A DNA stretch of 64,000 bases. Source: an uncultured Gammaproteobacteria bacterium. GTDB taxonomy: Bacteria; Patescibacteriota; Patescibacteriia; S139-126. The translations under genes were made by a program, and so were the position numbers. This document shows positions 12,429-49,003 of the stretch, piece after piece. The notes under the pieces are model-generated. The model was not told the origin of the DNA, made no database searches, and saw only the letters and a program-made list of their open reading frames with translations. The stretch spans positions 18,141 through 82,140 of the forward strand of contig CAZUKA010000001.1 in the NCBI GenBank assembly GCA_964620905.1, written 5' to 3'. The first letter of the stretch is position 1. The number at the start of each line of letters is the position of its first letter.

Positions 12429-13454
12429 ATGGATAAGTTAAATAAAAATTTACAAAGTTTAAGAGCAATAAAACTTGATAGTCAAGCCAAAGCCAGAGGG
12501 CGCGTGGTTTTATTGTCCAACTTAGCTTCTGATCAAACGGAAAAATTTTCTCTGATAAAATATTTAATTTCCCACCCATTGGTTTTGAAGCCTCTGACTT
12601 ATGTGGCAGCGGTGGTTTTGTTGTTTTTATTTGGTTCCTCCTATACTTTTTCAGCCGCCACCAACGCTTTGCCCGGCAATACTTTGTATCCAGTCAAGTT
12701 GCAGTTGGAAAAGTTGCAAGTTACTATGACTTCTGACCAAATGCTGAGAGCTAAAAAACAAATTGAGTTTACCGACCGGCGTTGGCAAGAATTTCAAAAT
12801 ATTTCCGAATCAGACGTCTTGTCTTTGGAAAAACAAGAGCAAGTAGCCAGAGCCGCTAGATACTTCAATGATTCTTTGCAAGAAATGAAAAATAGCCTAA
12901 ATGAAGTAAGTCAAGTAGAGAAAAATACTACCACCAATGGCGCAGTTGATATTGCTCAACTAGTCAACACCAAAACCAAACAGTATGAAGAAAAATTGGC
13001 TGGAGAATATGTTGATCTGCCAATTTCAGTTAAGTTGGTGATTGCCAAAGAAGTAGAAGAGATAAAGTTTCAGTCATTGGAGTTGTTGGTGACTAAATAT
13101 GAACAAGGCAGTAGTAGCGTTTCTCAAAGCGAGGTGGAAGCACAGTTACAAAGTAAAATTATATCTTTGGTAGAAAAAGCCAGTACCATGTCTGGAGATA
13201 GGCAAACTACTGCTTTGGAAAAATTACAATCAGTCCAAACGGCACTGTCTGATAAAAAATATTCTTTGGTAGTAAGTTCTATTCGTACTTATGAACAGTG
13301 GTTGGCAGAGGAAAAAGCCAAAGCCGAAGCAACGACCGAAGAGGCAACTACAACAGAAGGTGAAGTTTTAGGTGAAGAAGAGGTGGTTGACGAGACAGTA
13401 AATACTGTGAGTGATGTTAGTGCCAATACTTCAACAGAGAAAATAGTAGAATAA
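12429..13454 (+). CDS. membrane-anchored anti-sigma-factor-like protein (DUF5667-like), coiled-coil ectodomain with acidic T/E-rich tail
   Basis: Start codon overlaps the sigma gene stop (TAAATG). One TM helix LTYVAAVVLLFLFGS lies after a short cytoplasmic N-terminus. This position and architecture are typical of ECF anti-sigma factors. Function inferred from context only. Confidence 0.45.
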   Translation: MDKLNKNLQSLRAIKLDSQAKARGRVVLLSNLASDQTEKFSLIKYLISHPLVLKPLTYVAAVVLLFLFGSSYTFSAATNALPGNTLYPVKLQLEKLQVTMTSDQMLRAKKQIEFTDRRWQEFQNISESDVLSLEKQEQVARAARYFNDSLQEMKNSLNEVSQVEKNTTTNGAVDIAQLVNTKTKQYEEKLAGEYVDLPISVKLVIAKEVEEIKFQSLELLVTKYEQGSSSVSQSEVEAQLQSKIISLVEKASTMSGDRQTTALEKLQSVQTALSDKKYSLVVSSIRTYEQWLAEEKAKAEATTEEATTTEGEVLGEEEVVDETVNTVSDVSANTSTEKIVE

Positions 13455-13510
13455 AAATTACTTGCCTGGTATTCTGAAAAAAGTATTTTAAAAAACAAAA
13501 TTTACCTCTA

Positions 13511-13673
13511 CTTTTTTGACAACAAAAAAGTAGCAAAAAATTGCGTCCAATGCTTTGGTTCAGGCAAAATTGCCAATCCGCTCGTGTGCCTCTCAAAATC
13601 GCTTGCGCTAGTTGAGAGGCAAAATTCACTCGCTCCTTGACAATATTTGCACTTCACAAAGCAAATGGCCGAA
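13511..13673 (+). repeat. Family A palindromic repeat element, copy 1 (about 160 nt)
   Basis: Aligns over about 150 nt with 21219-21380. Shared core is gttcaggcaaaattgccaa.cgctcg..tgcctctcaaaa.cgctt.c.ctagttgagaggcaaa. Contains a 9-bp hairpin gcctctcaa/ttgagaggc. Confidence 0.7.
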
Positions 13674-13835
13674 TAAAAATAAATTAAATGTTTAAAAATT
13701 TAGATTTATTTACAAAATTAGAAAATTAAAAATTAAAAATTTTTTAAACGTTTGAAATTTGTAGATTTATGTCTATAGCTTTCAGACTTTTAAAGTCTGT
13801 GTCCCGCGCACGCGGGATAAAGTAGATCTTTGTTA

Positions 13836-13864
13836 GAACTTTGAATCATTCGGCCCTTCGTGTT
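13836..13864 (+). promoter_or_regulatory. candidate ECF-type promoter (GAACTT-N17-CGTGTT) upstream of the S-layer-like gene
   Basis: Motif agGAACTT / 17-nt spacer / CGTgtt loosely matches ECF sigma -35 GAAC and -10 CGT consensus. It lies about 250 nt upstream of ATG 14110 and just downstream of the ECF sigma/anti-sigma pair. Weak, sequence-only match. Confidence 0.25.
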
Positions 13865-14109
13865 ATTTCACGTTTGGGGGCTTTGGCAAAAAGTGAACAA
13901 GCAGATAGTTCTTTGCCAGTCATAAATGACTGGGTACGCTGCTTGTTCTAGACGAGCGGCATTTAGAACACTGCTTAGAGTTTGCTTTATAAAAATGCCA
14001 TTTGACCAAAGGTCGGACCAACGTAATCAGTAACCAAGATAAGCCTGGGTGGTTCTTTCGTTGCAATGAGTTCTAGCAAGACCTAATTATTAAAAAACAC
14101 AAACACTGT

Positions 14110-17100
14110 ATGAAAAAGTTTTTGATTGGCAGTTTGACAGTCATGACCGTAGTTTGGGCCATGGGTTTGTCTGCTTTCGTAGCAGTCCCAGCCTCAGCTG
14201 CTGTTGGTGATCTTGTTAAATCTGCTTCATCTAGCACAGTCTATGTAGTAAAGGCAGACGGTGTCACAATTTGTCAGTTCCCACATGCCAATGTTTACAA
14301 GTCATGGGGATATCCATCAAATTTCAGCACCGTTATGACTAAGGACCTCTCCAGCTACACTGTAGGATCAAACATCGAATTTAGAGATGCTTCCTTAGTG
14401 AAGGGAGATGGCCCAGCTGTATACCTCGTATACAACAACATGAAGAGACCAATTGTTTCTGATGTGGTCTTTTTGGCTCTCGGTTATGACTGGGATGATA
14501 TTACCTGGTTATCCGATGCATTTTTAGCTGATTACACCACTGGCGCGGTAGTTGATTCTTCAACTATGCACCCAGATGGTCAAATCGTAAAATATGCTGG
14601 AAATTCAGCGGTTTATCTCATTGATAACGGCATGAAGCGACCATTTGCTTCAGGTGCGGCTTATGAAGCCAATCGTTATTCTTGGAGTGACATTATTACT
14701 ATCCCTGACACCGAGACCTATCCAAATGGCTCAGCCATTTCAGGTTATGAGCAAGCTTTATCCTTACCAAATTGTATTGGTACCTCAGCAACTCCAGCTG
14801 GTAGCGGTTTGACAGTAGCTTTGTCTGCTTCAACCCCAGCCGCTGGTAGCATTATCACTGATTCATCCAATGGAGGTCAGGCTTTAGCTTCTTTCACCAC
14901 TGTTAACTTCACCGCCTCTTCTGATGGTGATGTTAAAGTAACCAATTTGAAGTTCAAGAGAACAGGTGTATCATCTGATACCTCACTTGATAACATGTAT
15001 CTCTATGATGGTAATACCAAACTTACTGATGGTGGTTCACTATCAAGTGGTATGGTTACCTTCAACAATTCAAATGGTTTATTCACAGTTCCAGCCGGCA
15101 CTACCAAGTCCATCACAGTTAAAGGTGATGTATCTACCACTGCCACCGCTGGTCAGACTATTGGTTTTGAATTATCCGGTTCCGCTTGGGTTACCACCAA
15201 CGGTGCATCCGTTTCTGGTAGTTTCCCGGCCTCTGGACATTTAATGACCGTAGCTTCTGTGTCTGATTTGGCCAAAGTTGGTGTGGCTACAACTTCTGTA
15301 GCTACAACTGTTGATCCTGACTCCACTGATGTAGTGGTTTGGCAGGGTACAGTTTATACCACCAACCAAACTGTGGCTTTGCACTATGTTAAATTTACTT
15401 CCCTCGGCAGCATTCAATATGATGACTTGAAGAATTTCAAGTTATATGATGGTGGCACTTTGGTTTCCTCTGTTGCCAGCATGACTTCTGACCGCGAAGT
15501 AATGTTTGACTTAACTGGCAGCCCAGTTAATTTCACTGTTGGTCAATCCAAGACCTTCAAAGTAATGGCTGATGTCGTCAAAGGTTCTACCCGTACTTAT
15601 AATTTCACTATCCAAGAAGCAACTGATATAGTTGCTAAGGATACCAATTATAATGTGTATGTTACTTCCAAAGTAACTAGCTCTTATGCTAACTGGGTGG
15701 TACTTAAGATGACTACTGATACTCAAATTAATTCTGGTGATTTAACTATTACCAAAGCCAATACCTCACCAACTGGCAATGTTGCTCAAAATGGTACCAA
15801 TGTAAAAGTTGCTACCTTTGAGTTGAAAGCCACTGGTGAAGATATGAAGGTAAAAGATTTGAACGTTAAGGCTGATTTTTCTTCAGGTTATGAAGGTGGT
15901 CTTGACAATGGTAAAGTATTTTTCAATGGCGTCCAAGTTGGTTCTACCAAGGATTTAACTGAAGCTGGTACCATCAACTTTACTTTTGGTTCAAGTTTGA
16001 TTGTTCCAGCCGGTACTACAGGTGTATTGGATATCTATGCTGATATACGTTCAGCTACAGGTACTACCATCACTGATGGTTCTGACGTCACTGTTTCTTT
16101 GGAAGCAGGCAGTTCCAATGTCCAAAAGATGGCATCACTTGGCTATACTAGCGCTCCAAGCGCCTCAGTACCAGCAAATAGTTTAAATGTAACCGCTGGT
16201 TCATTAAGTATTACTGAGTACTCTGCTTATACCAACCAAACCATGGTAGCAGGTAGTAACAACGTCAAGGTTGGTAGCGCTGTGTTTACCGCTGGATCAG
16301 CTGAAGGTGTCAATGTGACTTCAATCACAGTTGATTTATCAGCTGCTGAAGCTGGTAGCTCTACTAACATGTATTTGATGAAGGATGGTGTACAAATTGG
16401 TGTTACAAAACCAACCTTGTCCACTTCCAACATCTTTTCAGTCAATTTCAGCATCCCAGCTTCTGGTAGCCAGATCATTGATCTGTATGCCAGTTTGAAG
16501 AGTAATGCCGGACAAGGTACTTGGGAAGCTTCTATGTCTGCTGAAGGTGTAGGATTAACCACCAACAACACAGTTACTGCTGGTGCCCAAGCTTTACAAG
16601 ATATTACCATTGGCACTGGTGCTTTAACTGGTGTAGTTGATGCTTCCAGACCAGATGCTGATATAATCTTAGCTGGTACTACTAAAGTCTTGATGAACGC
16701 TATTAAGTTTACTGCTCAGTATGAAGACTTCAATGTTCAAGAAATGACTTTTACTGCAGACAATGCTACTGGTAATTTCCAACAACATGTTGGTGCAGTC
16801 ACACTTGAATATCCAACTCAAGGTGGTGGCACAGGTACAGCTCTTGGTTATATGGCAGGTGGTAGTGTTACTTTCACAAACCTTACCTTCTATATAGCAA
16901 GAGATACTTCAGCTGTGTTGAAAGTTTACATTGATGTTCCATCACTATCATCTGGCACCATTTCTGGTGGCACTGGTAGTATAAATTGGGATGTTTCTGC
17001 TACTTATAAGCATGTCGGTTTAGGAAGTGGTAATACTGACAGTGATGCTGATTCAGCACCTGGTATAGTTGCTGCTTCTGATATTGATGGTAATGACATG

Positions 17101-18937: not shown

Positions 18938-21127
18938 ATGTCCCAAAACACCCTCAAACGAATCATCCAATCAGGACTGGCAGCTGTGCTGTTTGTGCCA
19001 ATTTTAGTAAGTGGCAAGTTTTTATTTCCCTATATTCATTTAAAAAATGTAACTTTTCGGGTGCTAGTGACAATTATTTTAGTTTTAGCTGTTTGGTATT
19101 TATGGCGACAAGGTGAAATGTATGTGCGCAAAAATTATGTTTTGTATGCTTTTGCTGGACTGCTGGTAGTAGAAGTCATTGCTGGAATTTTTGGGGTAAA
19201 TTCACAAAATAGTTTTTGGAGCAATTATGAACGGATGGATGGTGTGGTTTTGTTTTGGCATTTACTGTTGTACTTGTTTTTACTTTTTCAGTTTTTTCAG
19301 ACCAAAGCCGATTGGCTGTTGTTGTTGCGTTTATCATCAGTGGTGGCTGTGATTTTATCAATTTATGGATTGGCACAACGGGCGGGAGTAAGTAACGCCT
19401 GGATTTTACCCAATGACGCTCCTCGGATCGCTTCCACCATAGGTAATCCTGCTTATTTTGGAGGGTATTTGTTGTTTCACATATTTTTTTCTGGAATTTT
19501 GCTTTACCTAGACCGAGTGCGGTGGCGACAGGTGATTTACGCTTTGGGAGTCATATTTTTCAGCTATATGATGTATGTGACAGGAACTCGTGGACCTTTC
19601 TTAGGACTGGTGGTGGGACTTATGGTGATGGGGCTTATGTATTTTAAACACGCTAGTAAAAAATTGAAAATCGGCATAGCTGTCGGTCTACTGCTTATCC
19701 CTTTGTCTGGAATATTTTTGTATACACAGCGAGATGCTGCTTGGCTTGGCACATCAACTCTAAAAAGAATTGCCGATATCAATTTGAAAGATTTGACTAC
19801 AATTGATCGTATCAATACTTATGTTACTTCGTGGCATGCTTATACCGATCGTCCTTTATTTGGCTATGGACCGGAGAATTATCGTTATGGGTTCAATAAA
19901 TACTACAATCCCGAATTGCATGAACAGTGGTTTGACCGGGCTCACAATGTTATTTTTGATTATCTAAATATAGGTGGACCTTTGGCACTGATCTTTTATT
20001 TATCACTTATGGGATCGGCATTGTATTATCTTTGGCAAGCAAGAAAAGATGATTATTTTTTGAGTGTGCTTATGATTGGTTTGCTGTCAGCTTATTTTTT
20101 CCAAAATTTATTTGTGTTTGATTCATTGAATACTTATTTGCCCTTGCTTGTTAGTTTGGCAATGTCTGCTTGGCTTTTTTTACACAAACAAAATTTGGCT
20201 AGCAAAATTTCAGCTAGAGTAAGATCTTGGCAGTTGCCGGTTTTATTGGTGGTAGTTTTATTTGTCATATTTAGCAATTATTTTATTGTTATTCGCCCGG
20301 CCAAAGCGAATTTGTTGATGATTGAAGCTTATCGTAACAGTGTGGTTGATCCCCAAAAAACTTTGGAACTTTTTCAAGCCAGTATTGATATGAAAACCTA
20401 TGGTTCGCGTGAAGGCATGCTGCAGCTAAATAATTTTGCTAGTTCAATGGTACGCGATCCCAATCAAACCATTGATTTTAAGCAAAAAGTTTTCCAGGTC
20501 AATCGCACTTATATTTTGGATCACCTAAATCGCGACCCGCATGATATTCAACTGCGAATGCTGCTTGCCAATACCTATCTTGGCTATGCTTTGCTGGATA
20601 ATACTTATTATCAAAAAACTGTTGATTTATTATCACCCTACCTTGATGATTCACCGGATAGGCTAGAGATTTATTTTACTTTGGCGCAGGGGTATTTAGG
20701 CGTAGGAGACATTGATCGAGCGGGTTGGGCAGTCAGGACAGCCTATCAAAAAACTCAAAGTAAGCCCTCGGTGTATTTAAATTTACTGAATTATTATGCG
20801 GCGGTCGGAGATACGGAAAATCTTTTGACTATCGCTAGTGAATATGAAAACAAATTTCCGTTGGGTTTGAATGAGTGGAAACAGCTGGCAGAGTTTTATT
20901 ACAATGTTAAATTGTATGACTTGGCAGAAAAAGTATTGCAAACAAAAATCATTCCCCAAGAAAAAGAAAATATTCAAAATTTTGCTTCCCTGGTAGCTGT
21001 TTGGCGGGATATGGGAAAAATTGACGAAGCGATTGGTTTGCTGGAAGAAATGCGTTTAGCTTTTCCGCAATATGCCAGTGATATCAATAACTATATTGAG
21101 CAAATGCGAGAGGAAATGGGTAATTAA
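18938..21127 (+). CDS. O-antigen ligase (Wzy_C/WaaL-like) domain polytopic membrane protein fused to a C-terminal TPR domain; candidate O-oligosaccharyltransferase
   Basis: About 10-12 TM helices in the N-terminal 430 aa, with a periplasmic loop and the YMMYVTGTRGPFLGLVVGLMVMGL region typical of Wzy_C ligases. The C-terminal 300 aa are TPR-like (YFTLAQGYLGVGDIDRAGWAVRTAYQK, LNYYAAVGDTEN, AEFYYNVKLYDLAEK). Confidence 0.65.
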   Translation: MSQNTLKRIIQSGLAAVLFVPILVSGKFLFPYIHLKNVTFRVLVTIILVLAVWYLWRQGEMYVRKNYVLYAFAGLLVVEVIAGIFGVNSQNSFWSNYERMDGVVLFWHLLLYLFLLFQFFQTKADWLLLLRLSSVVAVILSIYGLAQRAGVSNAWILPNDAPRIASTIGNPAYFGGYLLFHIFFSGILLYLDRVRWRQVIYALGVIFFSYMMYVTGTRGPFLGLVVGLMVMGLMYFKHASKKLKIGIAVGLLLIPLSGIFLYTQRDAAWLGTSTLKRIADINLKDLTTIDRINTYVTSWHAYTDRPLFGYGPENYRYGFNKYYNPELHEQWFDRAHNVIFDYLNIGGPLALIFYLSLMGSALYYLWQARKDDYFLSVLMIGLLSAYFFQNLFVFDSLNTYLPLLVSLAMSAWLFLHKQNLASKISARVRSWQLPVLLVVVLFVIFSNYFIVIRPAKANLLMIEAYRNSVVDPQKTLELFQASIDMKTYGSREGMLQLNNFASSMVRDPNQTIDFKQKVFQVNRTYILDHLNRDPHDIQLRMLLANTYLGYALLDNTYYQKTVDLLSPYLDDSPDRLEIYFTLAQGYLGVGDIDRAGWAVRTAYQKTQSKPSVYLNLLNYYAAVGDTENLLTIASEYENKFPLGLNEWKQLAEFYYNVKLYDLAEKVLQTKIIPQEKENIQNFASLVAVWRDMGKIDEAIGLLEEMRLAFPQYASDINNYIEQMREEMGN

Positions 21128-21218
21128 TTTTAAATTATAAATTGTAAATTTTAAATGTAATTGTCATTCCCGTGTAAACGGGAATCCAAAAATTAAAAAT
21201 AAAAGATTTTTTATTTCA

Positions 21219-21380
21219 ACTTTTTGTCAGCAAAAAGTAGCAAAAACTGCCGACCAGCGCTTCCGTTCAGGCAAAATTGCCAAACGCTCGCTTGCCTCTC
21301 AAAAGCGCTTACTCTAGTTGAGAGGCAAATCCCGCTCGTTTATTGGCAATTTTTCACTTCAGGAAGCGGAAGGTCGGAAT
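21219..21380 (+). repeat. Family A palindromic repeat element, copy 2
   Basis: See copy 1. Same orientation, extended imperfect palindrome (ccgaccagcgcttccg...cggaagcggaaggtcgg outer arms; gcctctcaa/ttgagaggc inner hairpin). The tracker ORF 21224-21412 lies inside it and is judged spurious. Confidence 0.7.
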
Positions 21381-21545
21381 ATTTTAAAAATTTTGATTTA
21401 TTTAAAAATTAAAAAATTACAAAATTAAAAATTGATTAGTAATTAATAATTGACCAAAAGTTATCCCCTGGTCATATATTAAATATTTTTTATAATAAAA
21501 AGCAAAGTTAATTTGAACTAGGAAGGAGGGTATTAGTAAAAAGTT

Positions 21546-21596
21546 CACCCTGTTAAATTGCTTTTGCACCGCCTGTGGCGGATTTAACAAGGGTTT
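21546..21596. repeat. Family B nested hairpin repeat (accctgttaaat...ccgcc-tgt-ggcgg...atttaacagggt), copy 1
   Basis: 12-bp outer stem accctgttaaat/atttaacagggt with an inner ccgcc/ggcgg palindrome. A second copy lies at 29687-29734. Confidence 0.7.
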
Positions 21597-21615
21597 AAGT
21601 TAGAAAGCACAAAGC

Positions 21616-21675
21616 ATTGTCATGCTGAACTCGTTTCAGCATCTTATGAGATTCCGAACCAAGTTCGGGATGACA
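21616..21675. repeat. Family C compound hairpin repeat (attgtcatGCTGAAc..gTTTCAGCatcttatgagattcCGAACcaaGTTCGggatgac), copy 1
   Basis: Two adjacent perfect hairpins enclosed by gtcat...gatgac. A near-identical copy lies at 48942-49003. Confidence 0.7.
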
Positions 21676-21699
21676 AAAAATAAAAAAATTAAAATGCCA

Positions 21700-21842
21700 T
21701 TCCGTATTTAATACGGAATCTAAAAACAAAAAAATATTTATTTTTTGGATTCCTGACTAGATCAGGAATGACAAGGAAAATTGATTTCTGATATATTACA
21801 AAAGTAAAATTCCTGCCACTACAGGCAGGCAGGAATGAAAAA
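21700..21842. repeat. cluster of Family D hairpins (stems beginning ATTCC... and ending ...GGAATGACAA), BIME/REP-like
   Basis: Three hairpins read directly: cattccgtatttaatacggaatc; ggattcctgactagatcaggaatgacaagg; aattcctgccactacaggcaggcaggaatgaaaa. Related hairpins occur at 21163-21186, 24846-24945 and 25253-25335. Confidence 0.65.
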
Positions 21843-21917
21843 ATTCATACATCATAAATCATAACCAAATTCTTAATACTTAAAAATTATAAAATTTAAA
21901 AATTAAAAATTTTTTAT

Positions 21918-24308
21918 ATGAGGAGAGAGAAGAAAAACATATTTTTTTTGTTGACGACTTTGATTGGTAGCAGTCGCAGGTTATTTATCCCAATAACAAT
22001 CGGGATTTTTTTGTTTTTTGTTTTTATTTTGCCAGTTCAAGCTATTATCATCGCACCCACAGCCACAGTCGGTGGTACAGTGAGAGATGCTAATACCAAT
22101 CAAACAATACCCGGTGCTCGGTTGATGGTGGTGGAAACTTTTACTGACCCTAACTGCGTAGCCGAGTTTGGTGAAAATAAATGTTTTGACAATCATTATA
22201 TATTCAACGAGACCACGACCAATTCATCCGGATCTTATAACTTTATAGTTGATGCTTGCGGTATGTCTTCATTGTTGGTAATTGTCAAAGAGGGCTATCA
22301 AAATTTTTCCCAGCCGAATAGTTTTGCTTGTTGGAGTAGTCAGGTAAAAAATATTTTACTAACGCCTGATAATCCTGTCTTACCTGAGCCGGTTATAATT
22401 ATTCCAGGGATTATGGCCAGTTGGAACCGGTATCTTTTAGACAAAAATTTAGAATACGCTGATGAGTGGGTGCTTGATCCACATTTTCACACTTATGACC
22501 AGCTGATTTCTGACCTGCAAACCTATGGAGGTTATGTCTTGGGCCAAACCTTGTTTACTTTTCCTTATGACTGGCGGAAAAATAATGAGTTTACCGCCCA
22601 ACTGTTGCGATCAAGAATTCAAGACATCAAAGCTCAAACCGGAGCTAGTAAAGTTGATATAGTAGCTCATTCTATGGGCGGACTGATAGTTAGGTATTAT
22701 ATTGAGAGTGAATTATATCAAGATGACATTGACCAGTTAATTTTTATTGCCACGCCCCAACGCGGCGCACCCAAAGCGTATCTGGCTTGGGAAGGCGGAT
22801 TTTTGGGGACCAGTATTGTGTCTGATTTTTTATTAGAAGTTTTAATTGCAAAAATTGCCAAAACTGATGGATTTTGTGACAGCGTTATAACCCGCAATAC
22901 GTGTGTTTACAACTATATCCGCAACTATCCAGTAGCCACAGTCAAACAACTTTTACCAGATAATGCATATCTAGAATCAGCATTGACCAGTGAGTTATTG
23001 TTGTATCCTGACAATCATCCAAACAATGATTTTTTGGAATTTTTAAATAATCAGGAAAGTTTGGCTAAGTTGTATGATTCTGGCATTGAGATTAGCACAA
23101 TATACAACTCTACCCCAAATAGCACTGTAGCTGGCATTAAAGTAATTGACCGTGAAGCAGGTCAAGTTCCTTTTTGGGAATATGGTTATCCGCACGGGTT
23201 TACTAGTTTGTTAAGAAATAATGGAATAATAAAAGGAAATGGAGATGGTACAGTAACAATTGATAGTAGTATTTATTTAGATTCAACTAGAAATATAAGT
23301 AAATTAAGTACAAATCATTCGAAGATTGTTTCGTTATCAGCCAAAAATGTAATTGAAATATTAAAAGGGGAATTTATTGATATTCAAGTAATTGATCAAC
23401 CAGATGAGTATGTAATTATTCAAGTGCATTCACCAATCAATGCGCAAATAGCAACGCCTCAAGGGAAAATTGTTGGGCAGGATTTTGCTTCTGGAGTTGA
23501 TGTCAATGAAGTTGAAGGAGCATATTACTCTGGCAGTGGAGCAACAAATGAATATATTGTTTTACCGCTAGTTGAAACAGGGGAATATGAGGTTAGTTTA
23601 CAAGGAACTGGAAGTGGTGAATATAAAGTTGAAATAATTTTAGCTGATGAGCAAGGAATAAGCAGTAAGGCATTTTCCGGTCAAATAGCCCCTGAAGTTG
23701 TGATAGATCTAAAGTTTCAGATAAATGAACAGGAGATAGGTGAAATTTTACCTGTTGATAAAACTGATCCAGTTATTACTATCACTAGTCCGGAAGTAAA
23801 AGAGTATGAACATCATTTACTGGTGCCAATCCAATATTTAGCAACAGATGATAGTGGGCAAATAACCACCAGCACTATTTGGTTCGATAGTGAAGAATAT
23901 GGGGGAGAAAATATTGATTTGTTTGTTTGGGAACTTGGGGAACACAAACTAGTAGTAAAGAGTAGTGATTGGTCAGGCAATAGTGCAGAACAAGAGGTTG
24001 TATTTACAGTTATTGCCACTATAACTAGTTTGCGATCAGATATCAATCGGTTGTATGATGAAGGAGAAATAAAAAATCAAAAAACCAAACAACAGCTTTT
24101 GACTGATACTGAAGTTTTGCAAAAGCTTTTGCAGTTTTATAAACCATATTTAGCGTCCAAACATCCATTTTTTGGCATGGTAATTGATAAGATCATAGGA
24201 GAGGTTATAAGCAAGCGACTTAGTAAGTATTTACGTCAAGGATATATCAGTGTCAAAACACACCAAATTTTGAAAACGCAAATGATTTATATAATTAAAC
24301 ATTATTAA
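21918..24308 (+). CDS. surface-anchored alpha/beta-hydrolase (LCAT/PGAP1-like lipase/esterase) with N-terminal carboxypeptidase-regulatory-like domain and large C-terminal beta-rich region
   Basis: N-terminal TM/signal (IPITIGIFLFFVFILPVQA). Pro-rich linker, then the FPYDWR motif and the GxSxG nucleophile elbow VAHSMGGLIVRYY, typical of LCAT/PGAP1-like lipases. The C-terminal 450 aa have no recognised match. Confidence 0.6.
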   Translation: MRREKKNIFFLLTTLIGSSRRLFIPITIGIFLFFVFILPVQAIIIAPTATVGGTVRDANTNQTIPGARLMVVETFTDPNCVAEFGENKCFDNHYIFNETTTNSSGSYNFIVDACGMSSLLVIVKEGYQNFSQPNSFACWSSQVKNILLTPDNPVLPEPVIIIPGIMASWNRYLLDKNLEYADEWVLDPHFHTYDQLISDLQTYGGYVLGQTLFTFPYDWRKNNEFTAQLLRSRIQDIKAQTGASKVDIVAHSMGGLIVRYYIESELYQDDIDQLIFIATPQRGAPKAYLAWEGGFLGTSIVSDFLLEVLIAKIAKTDGFCDSVITRNTCVYNYIRNYPVATVKQLLPDNAYLESALTSELLLYPDNHPNNDFLEFLNNQESLAKLYDSGIEISTIYNSTPNSTVAGIKVIDREAGQVPFWEYGYPHGFTSLLRNNGIIKGNGDGTVTIDSSIYLDSTRNISKLSTNHSKIVSLSAKNVIEILKGEFIDIQVIDQPDEYVIIQVHSPINAQIATPQGKIVGQDFASGVDVNEVEGAYYSGSGATNEYIVLPLVETGEYEVSLQGTGSGEYKVEIILADEQGISSKAFSGQIAPEVVIDLKFQINEQEIGEILPVDKTDPVITITSPEVKEYEHHLLVPIQYLATDDSGQITTSTIWFDSEEYGGENIDLFVWELGEHKLVVKSSDWSGNSAEQEVVFTVIATITSLRSDINRLYDEGEIKNQKTKQQLLTDTEVLQKLLQFYKPYLASKHPFFGMVIDKIIGEVISKRLSKYLRQGYISVKTHQILKTQMIYIIKHY

Positions 24309-24311
24309 TTT

Positions 24312-24689
24312 ATGAAAAAAACAGTTTATTTTATCCTGTCTTGGCTAGGAGTAGCTATTTTAGCCTGGCTAACAGCCAGTATTGGTAAAAATATTTACGG
24401 CATATTTTTTCCTGATCAAGTAATGGGTACTTGGATTAATATCATTGAGCCTGGTATTATAGAAGGATTTGTATTGGTATATTTATTTTGGCTGGGACTT
24501 TTGTTTGTGCCCGTGTTTAAAACCAAATGGTGGCAGTATGCTTTGGCACCGGGTTTAATATTATTTTTACCTTTTATGCTTTTTTGGCAAATTGCTCTAA
24601 TGGGGATAATGTTCTTTGCGGTTGGAGTGGGGTTGGGGTATCTGGCGCTTTGGTTGAAGAAAAAAATTGGTACAGGATTTAAGATTTAG
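24312..24689 (+). CDS. small integral membrane protein (about 4 TM), unknown function
   Basis: Hydrophobic 125-aa ORF starting 4 nt after the lipase-like gene. Confidence 0.5.
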   Translation: MKKTVYFILSWLGVAILAWLTASIGKNIYGIFFPDQVMGTWINIIEPGIIEGFVLVYLFWLGLLFVPVFKTKWWQYALAPGLILFLPFMLFWQIALMGIMFFAVGVGLGYLALWLKKKIGTGFKI

Positions 24690-24810
24690 GATTTATGATT
24701 TAAGAATAGATTTTTATTCCCTCTCTTAAAATAAGAGAGGGTTAGGGAGAGTTATATTTTTGATTTTAACCCCCTTAGTCCCCCTTATATTAAGGGGGAA
24801 AAGAGAAAGT

Positions 24811-24873
24811 AAGATTTATATGAAGGTTTATTTTAGATTTTTTTGGATTCCTGCCTGCGCAGAAATGACAAGG
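24811..24873. repeat. 63-bp perfect direct repeat, upstream copy (flanks the GIY-YIG gene)
   Basis: aagatttatatgaaggtttattttagatttttttggattcctgcctgcgcagaaatgacaagg is identical to 25220-25282. The downstream copy starts inside the last 8 codons (KDLYEGLF*) of the GIY-YIG ORF. Confidence 0.85.
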
Positions 24874-24957
24874 ATAAATACAAAAATGTCATTCCTTATT
24901 TAATAAAGAACATCTTGTCATCCCTGACTTGATCAGGGATTTAAAAATAAAAAAAAG

Positions 24958-25245
24958 ATGAGAGAGTATTTTGTTTATATTCTGGCTAGTAATATAAATG
25001 GCACATTGTATATAGGTGTGACTTCAGATTTGAAGAAAAGGATATATGAACATAAAAATGATTTAGTACCAGGTTTTACCAAGAGATATAAAATTCATGA
25101 TTTAGTTTATTTTGAAGTAACCAATGACATCAGAGAAGCATTACTTAGAGAAAAAAGATTAAAAAAATGGAAAAGAGAGTGGAAAATTAAGCTAATTGAA
25201 AAAAATAACCCAAGTTGGAAAGATTTATATGAAGGTTTATTTTAG
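24958..25245 (+). CDS. GIY-YIG nuclease superfamily protein (UPF0213/URI-domain, about 95 aa)
   Basis: YFVYILASNINGTLYIGVTSDLKKRIYEHKN...RLKKWKREWKIKLIE matches the GIY-YIG / conserved Arg / His / Glu pattern of stand-alone GIY-YIG proteins. Confidence 0.8.
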   Translation: MREYFVYILASNINGTLYIGVTSDLKKRIYEHKNDLVPGFTKRYKIHDLVYFEVTNDIREALLREKRLKKWKREWKIKLIEKNNPSWKDLYEGLF

Positions 25246-25282
25246 ATTTTTTTGGATTCCTGCCTGCGCAGAAATGACAAGG
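25220..25282. repeat. 63-bp perfect direct repeat, downstream copy
   Basis: Identical to 24811-24873. Spacing between copies is 409 bp. Confidence 0.85.
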
Positions 25283-25376
25283 GAGAAGGGATTCCTGTTG
25301 AAGTTTATCCGCTAAATAAGCGGGATAGGAATGACAAAAGAAAAGCGGAAGGTCATAATACCTTAATATATATAAC

Positions 25377-25690
25377 ATGGAGATAAAATTTCTTTTACCT
25401 GAAATAAAAAGATATATTTTTAGTCTTGAGAATAATATGCCACAAAGAGTTTTTCGGGTTATAGATTTACTGAAGAGGTTTGGTAGTAATTTACCTATGC
25501 TCTTATCCGAAGTTTAGGAAAGGGATTGTTTGAATTGAGAATAAAAGGGAATAAAGAAATAAGAATATTTTTCTGTTTTTATAAAGATCAGGCAGTTTTA
25601 TTGCATATATTTACAAAGAAAACAAAAACTATACCCTTTAGAGAATTAAATATAGCTAAAGAGCGAATGAAGGACTTGACTGAATTATAA
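25377..25690 (+). pseudogene. frameshifted HigB-like (Gp49/RelE-ParE superfamily) toxin gene
   Basis: The N-terminal frame gives MEIKFLLPEIKRYIFSLENNMPQRVFRVIDLLKRFGSNLPMLLSEV then a stop. A -1 frame continues YALIRSLGKGLFELRIKGNKEIRIFFCFYKDQAVLLHIFTKKTKTIPFRELNIAKERMKDLTEL. Together they reconstruct a typical HigB/Gp49-like toxin. Total length 314 nt is not a multiple of 3. Confidence 0.6.
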
Positions 25691-25711
25691 CTTATATGTT
25701 ATAATGATTTT

Positions 25712-26002
25712 ATGAAGAAAAAAATATATTTAGAATCATATTCTAGAGTAAAAAAACAAGCTTTTCGTAAAAAAGGTTTTAAAAAGGCTTATGATGAATT
25801 GGAGCCTGAGTTTGCTTTGATTGAGATGATAATTGCCAAGAGAATTGAAAAAGGAATGACGCAAAGTCAGTTGGCAAAGAAAATGGGTACTAAGCAATCA
25901 GCTATTTCCCGACTGGAAGGAGGCGAGTACAATCCCTCATTGGATTTTTTGAAAAAATTGTCCAAAGCACTTGATGTCAAAATGAAAATATCATTTAATT
26001 AG
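25712..26002 (+). CDS. HigA-like antitoxin, XRE-family HTH DNA-binding protein
   Basis: MTQSQLAKKMGTKQSAISRLEGGEYNPSLDFLKKLSKALDVKMKI is a classic XRE HTH. It sits immediately downstream of the toxin remnant, in HigB-HigA gene order. Confidence 0.75.
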   Translation: MKKKIYLESYSRVKKQAFRKKGFKKAYDELEPEFALIEMIIAKRIEKGMTQSQLAKKMGTKQSAISRLEGGEYNPSLDFLKKLSKALDVKMKISFN

Positions 26003-26184
26003 AATTTATTTTTAAAATTAGAAAATTTATTTACAATTTATAATTTGAAATTTATAATTTTTCTTCAAAATTAGCCCTGTGGATAACTTTATTGCTGGTT
26101 GAGATAAATAATTGTTATAATATTAGCGAAAAAGTAGATTTTAATTTTTATTCTAGTTTCACTATATAACTCTTGGAGGAGAGG

Positions 26185-26212
26185 ACGCCGTGCTGCAGCA
26201 CGGCGTTTTTTG
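26185..26212 (+). terminator. intrinsic terminator (acgccgtgc-tgca-gcacggcgt + TTTTTT)
   Basis: Perfect 9-bp GC-rich stem with a 4-nt loop and a six-T run, in the convergent gap after higA. Confidence 0.85.
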
Positions 26213-26215
26213 ATA

Positions 26216-26237: not shown

Positions 26238-26371
26238 GATTTAGTTGAAAGTTAGTAAAGTATATAAAGTTAGGAAGTATAGTTGATTTAAGATTTATGA
26301 TTTAAAATTTAAGAATACTCATAAATTATACTTCATATATCATAAATCTTATAAATTATTTATAATTTAAA

Positions 26372-27505: not shown

Positions 27506-27524
27506 AGCAAAAAAGATTTATGAT

Positions 27525-27920
27525 TTATGAAGTATGATTTAAGAGTTCTTTAGTTTTGGTTAAAAAACCCTGCAATAACGCATGTGTAGTATTTGCTTGT
27601 TCGACCAATGATTTAAAATCTGTTTCATTTAAATAGCCAACATCTTTGGCAATCAATATTTGATCTTTTAATTCAGTCAAAGAGCCGTGGGCTTGATAGT
27701 AAAAGCGTAGCTTATCTTTGAACCCTTGTCTACCAAAACCTTCAGCAATATTACTTGTAACTGAACTTGATGATCTTCTCATCTGATCAACTAAAGAATA
27801 AGTTTCTTCTTTGGGAAAATTTTTGGTTATAGAATAGATTAAAATGACGAGTTTATGTCCTTCTTGCCAAACTTTTAAATCAGTAAAAGATTTTATTTTA
27901 TTATTTTCTAATTTATTCAT
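27525..27920 (-). CDS. four-helix-bundle protein (23S rRNA intervening-sequence protein family, TIGR02436-like)
   Basis: FTDLKVWQEGHKLVILIYSIT..FPKEE.YSLVDQMRRSSSSVTSNIAEGFGRQ...GSLTEL matches the four-helix-bundle family signature. Flanked on both sides by AT-rich heptamer repeat tracts. Confidence 0.75.
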   Translation of the reverse strand: MNKLENNKIKSFTDLKVWQEGHKLVILIYSITKNFPKEETYSLVDQMRRSSSSVTSNIAEGFGRQGFKDKLRFYYQAHGSLTELKDQILIAKDVGYLNETDFKSLVEQANTTHALLQGFLTKTKELLNHTS

Positions 27921-28770: not shown

Positions 28771-28842
28771 TAGAAAAGATTTAGGATTTAAGATTTAGGA
28801 TTTAAGAATAATAATCATAAATCATAAATCATACTTCATAAA

Positions 28843-29667
28843 TCATATGGCTAGCCAATCTTTTGGTAGTAGATGCTCATAGTGCTTCTGGTATTTATTA
28901 TTCCATTTTTTGGGAGCAATGACAATTTTGTTGGGATTTTGATTTAAATATGCAGCCCACCAGGAAAAAGTGCTGTTGGCTATAATTTGATGTTGGCACT
29001 GGCGCAACAGTATCAGTTCTTGTGCTTCATCGCTGTCTTGGTCAGGGGATACATAAATAATCGGTTGCAGGTTTTTTAAATTTGCTTTTGCCCAAGCAAT
29101 ATCATCAGAAAAAACAAAATAGGTGATATTTTGTAGTTTTGATTGTATTAACCCAAGTGCTTTTTGAAAATAATCCAGCGTGATTGTTTGATGGATAGAT
29201 TTAATAAAATCACCTCGTCTGATGTGAATAGCAACTGATGTGGTGTTTTTTATTTGTTCTGATATATTTTGATAATAACCATTAATTATACATTTCAGAG
29301 TGATTTCTTCAATTAATTCTTTTTTTATTGGGTCAATATATAGATATGATTGAAAGTACCCTTCAAAATAATTGTCTTGCAATGTAAGTAATTGTGGTTG
29401 CCAACCAATATGAAATTCACGAAATATTTTTTGTTTGATAAATTTTGCAAAAACTGAGGGCGCGTATTTTTGTATTTCATCTGCATTGGCAATTTGTGCT
29501 TTGATATTGAATTTATTTAAAACATAATCTCGGCGTGTGTCCTTAACACTCCCCAAAGATTGAATATCAAGTTTTAGAGGTTCATTTTTCTTGATAGCAA
29601 GTAATCTGCCAAAACCGTATTGGAAAAGTTGATTTCCTAGTCCACCTTTTAATTTAATTATTATCAT
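28843..29667 (-). CDS. alpha-1,2-fucosyltransferase (glycosyltransferase family 11)
   Basis: GT11 signature motifs are present: IIIKLKGGLGNQLFQYGFG, HIRRGDF, and the C-terminal ...IANSTFSWWAAYLN. Consistent with the gmd/fcl genes in the same cluster. Confidence 0.8.
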   Translation of the reverse strand: MIIIKLKGGLGNQLFQYGFGRLLAIKKNEPLKLDIQSLGSVKDTRRDYVLNKFNIKAQIANADEIQKYAPSVFAKFIKQKIFREFHIGWQPQLLTLQDNYFEGYFQSYLYIDPIKKELIEEITLKCIINGYYQNISEQIKNTTSVAIHIRRGDFIKSIHQTITLDYFQKALGLIQSKLQNITYFVFSDDIAWAKANLKNLQPIIYVSPDQDSDEAQELILLRQCQHQIIANSTFSWWAAYLNQNPNKIVIAPKKWNNKYQKHYEHLLPKDWLAI

Positions 29668-29686: not shown

Positions 29687-29734
29687 TACCCTGTTAAATT
29701 ACTTTGTACCGCTTTCGGCGGATTTAACAGGGTG
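29687..29734. repeat. Family B nested hairpin repeat, copy 2 (overlaps the 3' end of the FkbM gene)
   Basis: taccctgttaaatt actttgtaccgctttcggcgg atttaacagggtg. The last ~12 codons and the stop of the 29699-30664 ORF are encoded within this element. Confidence 0.7.
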
Positions 29735-30664
29735 AATTATTAAATCTCTCAGTAAACTTATTTTTTCTTCTGGGACAGCAATTAAATTATCATAATTTGA
29801 TATATCTGGAACAAATTTGGGATTTTTTAAATTACCTTGTAAATCAGCTTCAAAAATTTGGTAATTATTTTCTTTTAATATTGATATAGAAGTATTTTTA
29901 TTTTCTTCCCATTCTTTTTCAAAAGTAATTTCTATACTAATCAACGGTCTAATAGAATTTAAAACAGATTTCATGCCTTGTAAGATTTTATATTCAGCTC
30001 CTTCAGCATCAATTTTTATAAAATTTGGAATAACATTATTTTCTTGGCAAAAACTATCTATATCAGTAGCAGATACTGAAATATGTTTTTCTTGTTTATG
30101 TAAAAATTCGTAATTGTTTTCTTGGCGGTTTTTGAAAGTATTGAAGGCACTGTATTTTGGTCCATAGTCCAAAAAATCGATAGTTGTTTTTTTATCAAGC
30201 GCGGCTAAATTGGAAGGATAAACATTTTTATTTTGAGCCATTTGGCTATTGAGCTTTAATGAATAAAAAGTTCGAGGAGTTGGTTCTAAAGAGTAGACTT
30301 TACCGTTTTTTTCAACTAAATAAGAAGCAAGTAAAGAATAATAGCCCACATGAGCACCAACATCTAAAAAAGTGTCACCAGGTTTTAAAAAGTTAATCAA
30401 AAAATTGGTTAAATTGGCTTCAAAAAAACCATAGTACTGCAAGGCATTTGCTTCTGGTAAGTAGTAAGTCATCTTTTGCCCCCAGAGTGATTTTTTATAA
30501 ACACGGTAAGGTTTTAGATAAGCAAATAGTGCCATTATATAAAAAATTCCAGTTCTCCATGGGTCTTTAATAAGTCTTTTAAAACGACTGTTATTGAATT
30601 TATACAATTCGTAGCGTTTTAAAATTTTTTCTTTTAGTTGATGTTTGACTGAATCAGACGGCAT
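29699..30664 (-). CDS. FkbM-family methyltransferase
   Basis: FLDVGAHVGYYSL...GKVYSLEPTPRTF...FIKIDAEGAEYKIL matches the FkbM methyltransferase family. Confidence 0.7.
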   Translation of the reverse strand: MPSDSVKHQLKEKILKRYELYKFNNSRFKRLIKDPWRTGIFYIMALFAYLKPYRVYKKSLWGQKMTYYLPEANALQYYGFFEANLTNFLINFLKPGDTFLDVGAHVGYYSLLASYLVEKNGKVYSLEPTPRTFYSLKLNSQMAQNKNVYPSNLAALDKKTTIDFLDYGPKYSAFNTFKNRQENNYEFLHKQEKHISVSATDIDSFCQENNVIPNFIKIDAEGAEYKILQGMKSVLNSIRPLISIEITFEKEWEENKNTSISILKENNYQIFEADLQGNLKNPKFVPDISNYDNLIAVPEEKISLLRDLIIHPVKSAESGTK

Positions 30665-43094: not shown

Positions 43095-43170
43095 AGAATG
43101 AATGATTTATGATTTATGATGTATGATTTACGAATTATTCTTAAATCCTAATTCTTACTTCTTAAATCTT

Positions 43171-48941: not shown

Positions 48942-49003
48942 ATTGTCATACTGAACTTGTTTCAGCATCTTATGAGATTCTGAAACAAGTTCAGGATGAC
49001 GGT
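48942..49003. repeat. Family C compound hairpin repeat, copy 2
   Basis: attgtcatactgaacttgtttcagcatcttatgagattctgaaacaagttcaggatgac. Compare 21616-21675. The tracker ORF 48920-49108 is spurious. Confidence 0.7.

Follow-up and report, generated by a model that had tools for sequence, protein, structure and literature searches.

Why should a single intergenic region collect palindromic repeats of several kinds? The question is posed by a 790-bp spacer (21128-21917) between two plus-strand open reading frames (ORFs) in a 64,000-nt stretch of contig CAZUKA010000001.1 from an uncultured bacterium, hereafter the window. A first-pass annotation had listed five repeat items in this spacer, all of which we find where it placed them, sorted them into four distinct families, and proposed either a landing pad for small non-autonomous elements or a region acting at the RNA level. 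We conclude that the spacer is very probably a mosaic array composed mainly of six copies of one oriented hairpin repeat. Judged by sequence, these hairpins are in all likelihood Ssn-related motifs (SRMs) with a small nuclease gene, ssnA, as their partner, which would make the locus a new and fast-changing example of a system described by Chenal et al. (Nat Commun 2025; PMC11893778).

One oriented hairpin repeat in the spacer

The spacer contains three repeat families (SRM, A and B), not four, because a single family, occurring in two orientations, takes in the hairpin with the GTCATTCC motif, the family D hairpins and the left and right halves of family C. Its shared form is (T)TGTCATTCC–variable stem/loop–GGAATCC(A)n, or in short TTGTCATTCC–variable stem/loop–GGAATCC; turned to one orientation, all six spacer copies read (T)TGTCAT(T/C)CC–variable stem/loop–GG(A/G)ATC(C/T), usually followed by an A-run (Table 1). 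The three D hairpins are all present, but they are less uniform than had been described: the exact ending GGAATGACAA belongs to one of them alone (21765-21774), the hairpin at 21695 runs the opposite way (GCCATTCC...GGAATC), and the one at 21805 ends in GGAATGAAAA. SRM 1, the GTCATTCC hairpin, has the letters TTGTCATTCCCGTGTAAACGGGAATCC at 21161-21187, folds as DNA at -8.7 kcal/mol (z = -4.9), keeps both oriented flanks (GTC before the palindrome and C after it), and shares 34 nt without a mismatch with a copy from a metagenome-assembled genome of Ignavibacteriales (L041). The other array copies are ATTCC/ATCCC variants with cores of 9-18 nt. SRMs 2 and 3, the halves of family C, form a convergent, REPIN-like doublet, and the two family C copies (the first at 21617-21676) agree at 90.6% over 64 nt.

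An oriented scan for GTCAT followed by a palindrome gave 15 matches in the window, compared with 2.9 +/- 1.6 (maximum 8) in 100 dinucleotide-preserving shuffles. The convincing matches, in which TTGTCAT precedes an ATTCC- or ATCCC-type palindrome, are intergenic and lie nearly all at 21.1-21.8, 24.8-25.3 and 48.9 kb; the hairpins at 21695 and 21805, with their altered leaders, were detected by scans other than the one that requires GTCAT. Most of the hairpins fold well as single-stranded DNA (z about -4 to -5 relative to shuffled controls), and GTC on the 5' side together with C on the 3' side of the palindrome is present at 21163, 21619, 21651, 21749, 24847, 25256 and 25291 and in both halves of the second family C copy (C2). 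None of the repeat families is confined to this locus; by the terms of the first-pass annotation, such confinement would have counted against its proposal. Families B and C recur as it had claimed, and family A has a second copy that it had not recorded; since every family recurs elsewhere, that objection falls away.

A smaller palindrome, CCTGCC(N)GGCAGG or GCCTGTCCGCC...GGCGGACAGGC, is nested in SRM loops and in one family A copy, and may be a fourth tiny mobile hairpin family. A CRISPR-like array was also considered for the spacer, and is ruled out by the irregular spacing and the presence of both orientations.

Table 1. Coordinates of repeats, genes and other features (window positions unless a locus is named)
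Feature	Position	Strand	Remarks
Family A copy 2	13500-13690	+	from window repeat comparison
O-antigen-ligase/TPR ORF	18938-21127	+	5' neighbour of spacer
SRM 1, TTGTCATTCCCGTGTAAACGGGAATCCAAAAA	21161-21192	+	literal dRS3 (ATTCCC-N8-GGGAAT, 21166-21185)
Family A copy 1	21207-21400	+	small hairpin (ACTTTTTG-TCAG-CAAAAAGT), then ~130-nt imperfect hairpin
Promoter-like site, TGGTCA-16 nt-TATAAT	21469-21496	+	in 148-nt block, 92.6% conserved in L122
Family B copy 1	21547-21594		48-nt branched palindrome ACCCTGTTAAAT...ATTTAACAAGGGT; -15.2 kcal/mol, z = -5.0
SRM 2, TTGTCATGCTGAACTCGTTTCAGCATCT	21617-21646	+	family C left half; repeat, oriented and folding scans
SRM 3, minus strand reads TTGTCATCCCGAACTTGGTTCGGAATCT	21649-21676	-	family C right half; oriented and folding scans
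SRM 4, TGCCATTCCGTATTTAATACGGAATCTAAAAA	21695-21727	+	leader GCCAT, not GTCAT
SRM 5, plus strand reads TTTTTGGATTCCTGACTAGATCAGGAATGACAA	21742-21774	-	convergent with SRM 4
SRM 6	21805-21841	-	TTCAT leader; enlarged CCTGCC...GGCAGG stem
Nested small palindrome	21812-21829; L135; L155 9718-9760; L152 6098-6117		in L135 within a family A copy
LCAT/lipase-like ORF	21918-24308	+	CarboxypepD_reg domain; 3' neighbour of spacer
63-nt exact direct repeat of 25220-25282	24811-24873	+	last 26 nt of ssnA and 3' SRM, 100% identity
Degenerate SRM	24886-24910	+	upstream of ssnA; barely folds
SRM just 5' of ssnA, TTGTCATCCCTGACTTGATCAGGGATTTAAAAA	24915-24948	+	ends ~10 nt before start codon
ssnA homolog	24958-25245	+	95-aa single-domain GIY-YIG nuclease; PF01541 at residues 4-77, E = 3.5e-16
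SRM just 3' of ssnA	25247-25280	-	starts 2 nt past stop; convergent with upstream SRM
Further SRM with nested hairpin	25289-25337	-	downstream of ssnA
IVP genes	27525-27920; L122 3700-4059 and 6371-6730; L153; L155	- (window copy)
Family B copy 2	29689-29734		overlaps last ~12 codons of minus-strand ORF 29699-30664
Family C copy 2 (C2), SRM doublet	48943-49001		arms are 89% inverted copies of each other
Heptamer arrays	24676-24719, 26285-26356, 27515-27558, 28778-28859, 43104-43147, others

A probable ssnA homolog between convergent hairpins

The Neisseria repeat dRS3 (ATTCCC-N8-GGGAAT) belongs to a longer oriented motif, NTS (CGTCATTCCCGCGMAVGCGGGAATCYRG), which has been generalised across bacteria as the SRM (PMC11893778). 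A genome-wide screen picked ssnA, a 94-aa single-domain GIY-YIG gene flanked by SRMs, as the gene tied to the motif; an SRM lies near 71% of ssnA homologs and on both sides of 42% of them (PMC11893778). SsnA binds the hairpin as single-stranded DNA only, not as RNA, and cuts one strand a few nt upstream, the C past the palindrome being critical for binding and the three nt before the palindrome for cutting (PMC11893778). SsnA activity in N. meningitidis lowers transformation by NTS-containing DNA (PMC11893778). Chenal et al. compared NTS–ssnA–NTS with an insertion sequence, and the repeats with repetitive extragenic palindromes (REPs) and bacterial interspersed mosaic elements (BIMEs; PMC11893778), the same analogy that the first-pass annotation had drawn for the spacer and one that suits its REPIN-like doublet.

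The window consensus GTCATTCC...GGAATC is the NTS core, and an ORF 3 kb downstream of the spacer array, which had not previously been linked to the repeats, encodes a probable homolog of SsnA. Its product, with no second domain besides PF01541 in a profile scan, is the presumed protein partner of the hairpins, in place of the RAYT/IS200-like transposase suggested earlier, for which no candidate occurs among the window ORFs scanned. Y7, Y18, G20, H32, E65 and N84 are invariant in an alignment of 17 homologs across phyla; Y7, Y18 and E65 are matched to Y6, Y17 and E64 of the Neisseria enzyme by position alone. Homologs are abundant (7940 of 8000 scored candidates at E <= 1e-10, those listed being mostly 92-105 aa long), and a PDB sequence search with SsnA found no solved relative. 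In Desulfosarcina widdelii (L030), the homolog is 60% identical to the window protein and the hairpins on its flanks match the literal NTS core. Convergent SRMs enclose the window gene, and a copy of its 3' end, lying 409 nt upstream of the original, is what a duplication of the ssnA unit, or its recombination, has left behind (Table 1).

The association extends well beyond this locus. We scanned 185,579 species genomes, one per species, with the pattern TTGGATTCC-N6-30-GGAATGACAA and obtained at least 120 loci in many phyla, those listed including Bacteroidota, Ignavibacteria, Omnitrophota, Elusimicrobia, Planctomycetes, several proteobacterial classes, Patescibacteria and others. Gap lengths were far from uniform, with 73 of the 126 matches listed having a gap of exactly 10. 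At the three inner stem positions, which the pattern leaves free, Watson-Crick pairs of several types were present in 37, 36 and 39 of the 42 distinct cores, while partner-shuffled controls never exceeded 29, 35 and 33. The literal NTS core occurs 47 times within the loci listed. Of the 120 pattern-selected loci listed, 8 have an ssnA homolog no more than ~220 nt from the hairpin, and the convergent SRM–gene–SRM layout recurs in six other genomes (L122, L125, L030, L057, L078 and L081). This layout independently reproduces the published association.

The locus resembles the described system in its hairpin core (GTCATTCC...GGAATC) with oriented, non-palindromic flanks, in a ~95-aa single-domain GIY-YIG protein with conserved Y, Y and E whose gene sits between convergent motifs, and in extragenic motifs clustered beside surface-protein or polysaccharide genes. 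It differs in its host, a low-GC uncultured bacterium that is probably a member of the Patescibacteria; in its stems, which are AT-richer and more variable; and in its flanks, which are A-runs. The comparative indels described below are absent from the published account.

Just downstream of the ssnA cassette (~25378-26002, plus strand) lies a toxin-antitoxin-like pair, made up of a Gp49/HigB-like ORF (annotated in the aligning region of a related locus, L152) and an HTH_3 ORF (25712-26002). The pair is found also in L152, which is without ssnA.

Turnover of the array and its possible causes

Four further versions of the same locus (L152, L153, L122 and L155) were compared with the window. Against six SRMs in the window spacer, the corresponding spacers hold 0, 0, 2 and 4, and whole modules are swapped. 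The window reads SRM 1 with family A, a promoter-like block with family B, the C doublet, the SRM 4/5 pair and SRM 6. The closest relative, L152, whose flanking genes are 93-98% identical to those of the window, has the promoter-like block and B only, with no SRM and no A. L153 has a small IVP-type gene and the promoter-like block, with neither B nor SRM; L122 has an IVP gene at the position of SRM 1 and A, then the promoter-like block, B and the SRM 4/5 pair; and L155 has four SRMs in alternating orientation. The 148-nt promoter-like block is kept in L152 and L153 as well as in L122. The ssnA cassette is present in one of the four relatives and absent from three, and at its site L152 carries half a hairpin followed by a B copy. 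These comparisons support the view of the spacer as a hotspot with unit-wise gain and loss, and largely bear out the landing pad that had been proposed. Small 23S_rRNA_IVP (PF05635) genes themselves behave as movable intergenic cassettes bounded by inverted AT-rich repeats.

Two of the differences from L122 are indels of whole units, each present in the window and absent from L122: a 77-nt segment (family C plus spacer) abuts the TGT/CAT of SRM 4, and a 67-nt segment with SRM 6 abuts the GTCAT end of SRM 5. Both are compatible with insertion at the cleavage site of the nuclease. SRM 5 itself is kept at the syntenic L122 site, and the L122 ortholog of SRM 4 shows a compensatory stem change (GTAT/ATAC versus GCA/TGC). 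At the L149 site syntenic with C2 a decayed copy is found, and L149 also has a truncated tandem copy directly 5' of a GTCAT (GTCATCCCGAACTTGTTT/ATCTTT/GTCATCCCGAAC...).

The lipase-like gene, which two SRM clusters bracket, is the most diverged of the locus. Its product is 46.7% identical to that of L122, where neighbours reach 63-93% and SsnA 92.6%, and 83% identical to that of L152, where neighbours reach 93-98%. Such divergence suggests allele replacement or diversifying selection and may be read as a parallel with Neisseria, not a proof. The Neisseria intergenic mosaic elements (NIMEs) are made up of RS elements flanked by dRS3 repeats (Parkhill 2000; Bentley 2007, PMC1797815); their arrays differ between strains and adjoin unusually diverged genes, and were not seen outside Neisseria by Bentley et al. 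(PMC1797815). The spacer resembles these arrays in that inverted repeats of 20 bp, ATTCC(C)-N-(G)GGAAT, are interspersed with short repeats of other families, in that its length and content vary between relatives, and in that the genes next to it are unusually diverged. The differences are that the host is not Neisseria, that the strict dRS3 string fits one copy only, that the interleaved families A and B are unrelated to the RS families (units of 50-150 bp), and that the window shows no sign of a filamentous phage targeting dRS3 or of an IS110-type recombinase. The array also shares with REP, BIME and REPIN clusters its oriented extragenic palindromes recognised as single-stranded hairpins, its convergent doublets and its mosaic clustering, and with REP/RAYT systems a single-copy enzyme gene flanked by its own repeats. 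It departs from them in that the Ssn enzyme is a GIY-YIG nuclease and not an HUH/Y1 transposase, that the leader is GTCAT where REPs have GTAG, and that Ssn is not known to transpose. The array is NIME/BIME-like, in what is probably a Patescibacteria genome.

Several observations weigh against the assignment to a fast-changing Ssn/SRM system. The published degenerate string HGTCWYN(0-2)YYVSBRHN(0-5)WNVSBRGN(0-2)RNCYNB, which was hand-built from 29 genomes (PMC11893778), has no match in the window and finds one (21162-21187) when its last one or two positions are dropped; it misses the window SRMs because of their A-run flanks and AT-rich inner stems. In addition, the GCCAT of SRM 4 puts GCC before the palindrome (21697), the TTCAT of SRM 6 puts TTC there (21809), and the C after the palindrome is replaced by T at 21837 in SRM 6 and at 24941 in the hairpin at 24917; copies without a determinant defined in Neisseria may be dead sites. 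The indels may be gains in the window or losses in the relative, and the TGYCAT microhomology at their junctions fits recombination or slippage as well as transposition. Finally, surface proteins are fast-evolving, which could be all that lies behind the divergence of the lipase-like gene.

Should the Ssn/SRM assignment hold, the events at the locus may be pictured by analogy with the assayed enzymes. Where DNA becomes single-stranded, the SRM hairpin would extrude; SsnA would bind it through the stem sequence and the C just past the palindrome, and would then nick the hairpin strand a few nt 5' of GTCAT, with the opposite strand, duplex DNA and RNA not serving as substrates. The binding and nicking steps have been shown for Neisseria and Wolbachia enzymes (PMC11893778). 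The SRM–ssnA–SRM unit would have the architecture of an insertion sequence, with singlets and doublets such as family C as its non-autonomous derivatives. If new units arise beside the GTCAT edge of resident ones, arrays would grow and shrink locally. Families A and B, with which the array is interleaved, use the same permissive spacer. By extrapolation from Neisseria, SsnA would cut incoming or replicative single-stranded DNA at specific sites and would thereby modulate recombination in the neighbourhood of the surface-protein gene that the hairpins bracket.

A bolder proposal is that SRM–ssnA–SRM is an active mobile element of a new mechanistic class, in which a GIY-YIG single-stranded DNA nickase acts as the transposase and the hairpins, as singlets or as REPIN-like doublets such as family C, insert preferentially just 5' of a resident GTCAT. 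The two indels at GTCAT relative to L122, the partial copy in L149, the 63-nt duplication and the presence or absence of the ssnA cassette between close relatives are all compatible with it, and if it were true, insertion at the element's own cleavage site would produce self-seeding arrays and would explain both this hotspot and NIME arrays generally. We regard it as possible but doubtful.

It is unlikely that the array is instead an inert recombination scar, a neutral dump for small miniature inverted-repeat transposable elements (MITEs) in which the SRMs are decaying relics that no longer interact with SsnA. The altered leaders at 21695 and 21805, the poorly folding copy at 24886, the GAAAT in place of GGAAT in the SRM 3' of ssnA and the decay of C2 in L149 would all suit such a scar, as would the appearance of unrelated elements (A, B and IVP gene cassettes) at the same spots. 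However, ssnA is intact and 93% identical to its L122 ortholog, compared with 47-82% for neighbouring genes, orthologous SRM stems are kept by compensatory change, and GTC, the 3' C and good folding persist in most copies.

An RNA-level role for the hairpins, as terminators, stabilisers, processing sites or insulators with only a secondary similarity to SRMs, draws on other features of the spacer. Family A is co-oriented with its flanking genes in 6/6 cases, keeps its long stem through compensatory changes, and in some copies is followed by AAUAUUUU; transcription from the conserved promoter-like site in mid-spacer would also give the lipase-like gene a 5' leader containing all that lies downstream of the site, with B, C and SRMs 4-6 included. 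The SRMs themselves point the other way. They are nearly equally frequent in both orientations, none is followed by a T-run on either strand (they are preceded by T-runs or followed by A-runs), their conserved flanks outside the palindrome agree with what SsnA needs for binding and cleaving DNA, and the closest relative, L152, has the promoter-like block without any SRM; the Neisseria enzyme, moreover, does not bind RNA (PMC11893778). A terminator scan gave two terminator-like sites, barely more than the 0.6 expected from shuffled sequence; one (21829-21812, minus strand) covers only the inner stem of SRM 6 and the other lies outside the SRMs. Intrinsic terminators are ruled out by the lack of a T-run after any SRM. 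An RNA-level explanation of the array is quite improbable, and the earlier suggestion of such a role is unlikely for the SRMs and possible for family A.

It is extremely unlikely that these are REP/BIME repeats moved by a RAYT (an IS200/IS605-like Y1 transposase) encoded elsewhere, with the nearby GIY-YIG gene a coincidence, since short oriented extragenic palindromes, convergent doublets and mosaics with other elements suit that idea but the window ORFs scanned include no Y1 transposase, the 5' leader is GTCAT and not GTAG, the same hairpin stands beside GIY-YIG genes in unrelated phyla, and a published genome-wide screen ties the motif to ssnA (PMC11893778).

Companion repeats, the host and wider meaning

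Families A and B belong to no known family. Family A is a structured dispersed repeat of ~190 nt. Of its six copies, the window holds two and one metagenome four, each on a contig of its own; a 19-mer from the family matched metagenomes 20 times, four matches being true copies and the rest chance or coding sequence. In the spacer copy the ~130-nt hairpin folds at -61 kcal/mol (z = -5.2); 52 pairs make up the consensus fold of the family, and compensatory double changes occur at 8 of these. All six copies are intergenic and co-oriented with the upstream gene, the genes beside them are functionally unrelated, and no SRM lies beside the four metagenome copies. Rfam at gathering thresholds detected only a tRNA in the whole window, and permissive scans of 21100-21950 and 13400-14120 gave only sub-threshold chance matches (U4, U5, SCARNA7). 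Two readings fit family A: a MITE-like element maintained as a hairpin, or an element acting at the transcript level. Directly past the last SRM of the ssnA cluster, the fragment AAAAGCGGAAGGTCATAATA (25338-25360) resembles the 3' end of family A (GGAAGCGGAAGGTCGGAATA); at that site L152 has a family B copy instead.

Family B occurs twice in the window (86% identity over 43 nt), once at the syntenic site in L122 and twice in L152, and its folds reach z = -5 to -7. The window ORF whose last codons are supplied by the second copy belongs to a glycosyltransferase cluster. Its two ends form an inverted pair (ACCCTGTTAAAT/ATTTAACAGGGT). At the syntenic site L122 and L152 carry a copy and L153 does not; an 8-bp duplication, (T/A)AAAGTTT, marks the filled site, L122 reading AAAAGTTT-48 nt-TAAAGTTT where L153 reads AAAAGTTT/ATAAAG, and this one filled/empty pair points to a small MITE. 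The second copy (29689) has no clear duplication, and family B, for which no parent insertion sequence is known, may be called MITE-like. No match to family B was found in viral contigs. An integron attC site was considered and rejected, as the order GTTAAAT...ATTTAAC is reversed relative to the attC order RYYYAAC...GTTRRRY and no integrase is nearby.

The host is probably a member of the Patescibacteria, to judge from its genes: every named homolog, both for its DnaK (76-80% identity) and for the lipase-like protein, comes from Patescibacteria or other unclassified uncultured bacteria. The neighbouring DUF5667 and DUF5671 proteins presumably fit this placement. The window has a GC content of ~35%, and short-read assemblies of the source organism break at these repeats. 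Other features include a candidate small RNA unit (26085-26215, plus strand) without an Rfam match, which combines TTGCTG-17 nt-TATAAT with a transcript of ~75 nt and a strong terminator (GGACGCCGTGCTGCAGCACGGCGTTTTTT); a DnaA-box-like TGTGGATAA precedes the unit, which L122, L152 and L153 share in conserved form. Tandem arrays of a heptamer (GATTTAA/GATTTAT and its complement) form inverted pairs in many intergenic regions of the window genome and its relatives (Table 1). Five tandem repeats of 153 nt (51 aa; 46466-47293) lie within a subtilisin-like ORF (45233-47440).

These findings extend NIME-like arrays of Ssn hairpins to a low-GC genome that probably belongs to the Patescibacteria. AT-rich variants escape the published search string, so that the counts of the system in existing censuses are probably too low. 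The structured repeats A and B, which are uncharacterised, are by-products that merit a separate look. Across five syntenic loci, arrays and the ssnA cassette have been gained or lost over short evolutionary distances beside the most diverged gene, and this series could settle both SRM mobility and local gene replacement, two questions left open by the original description (PMC11893778). Patescibacteria depend on DNA uptake, which is where a restriction of single-stranded DNA of this kind would act.

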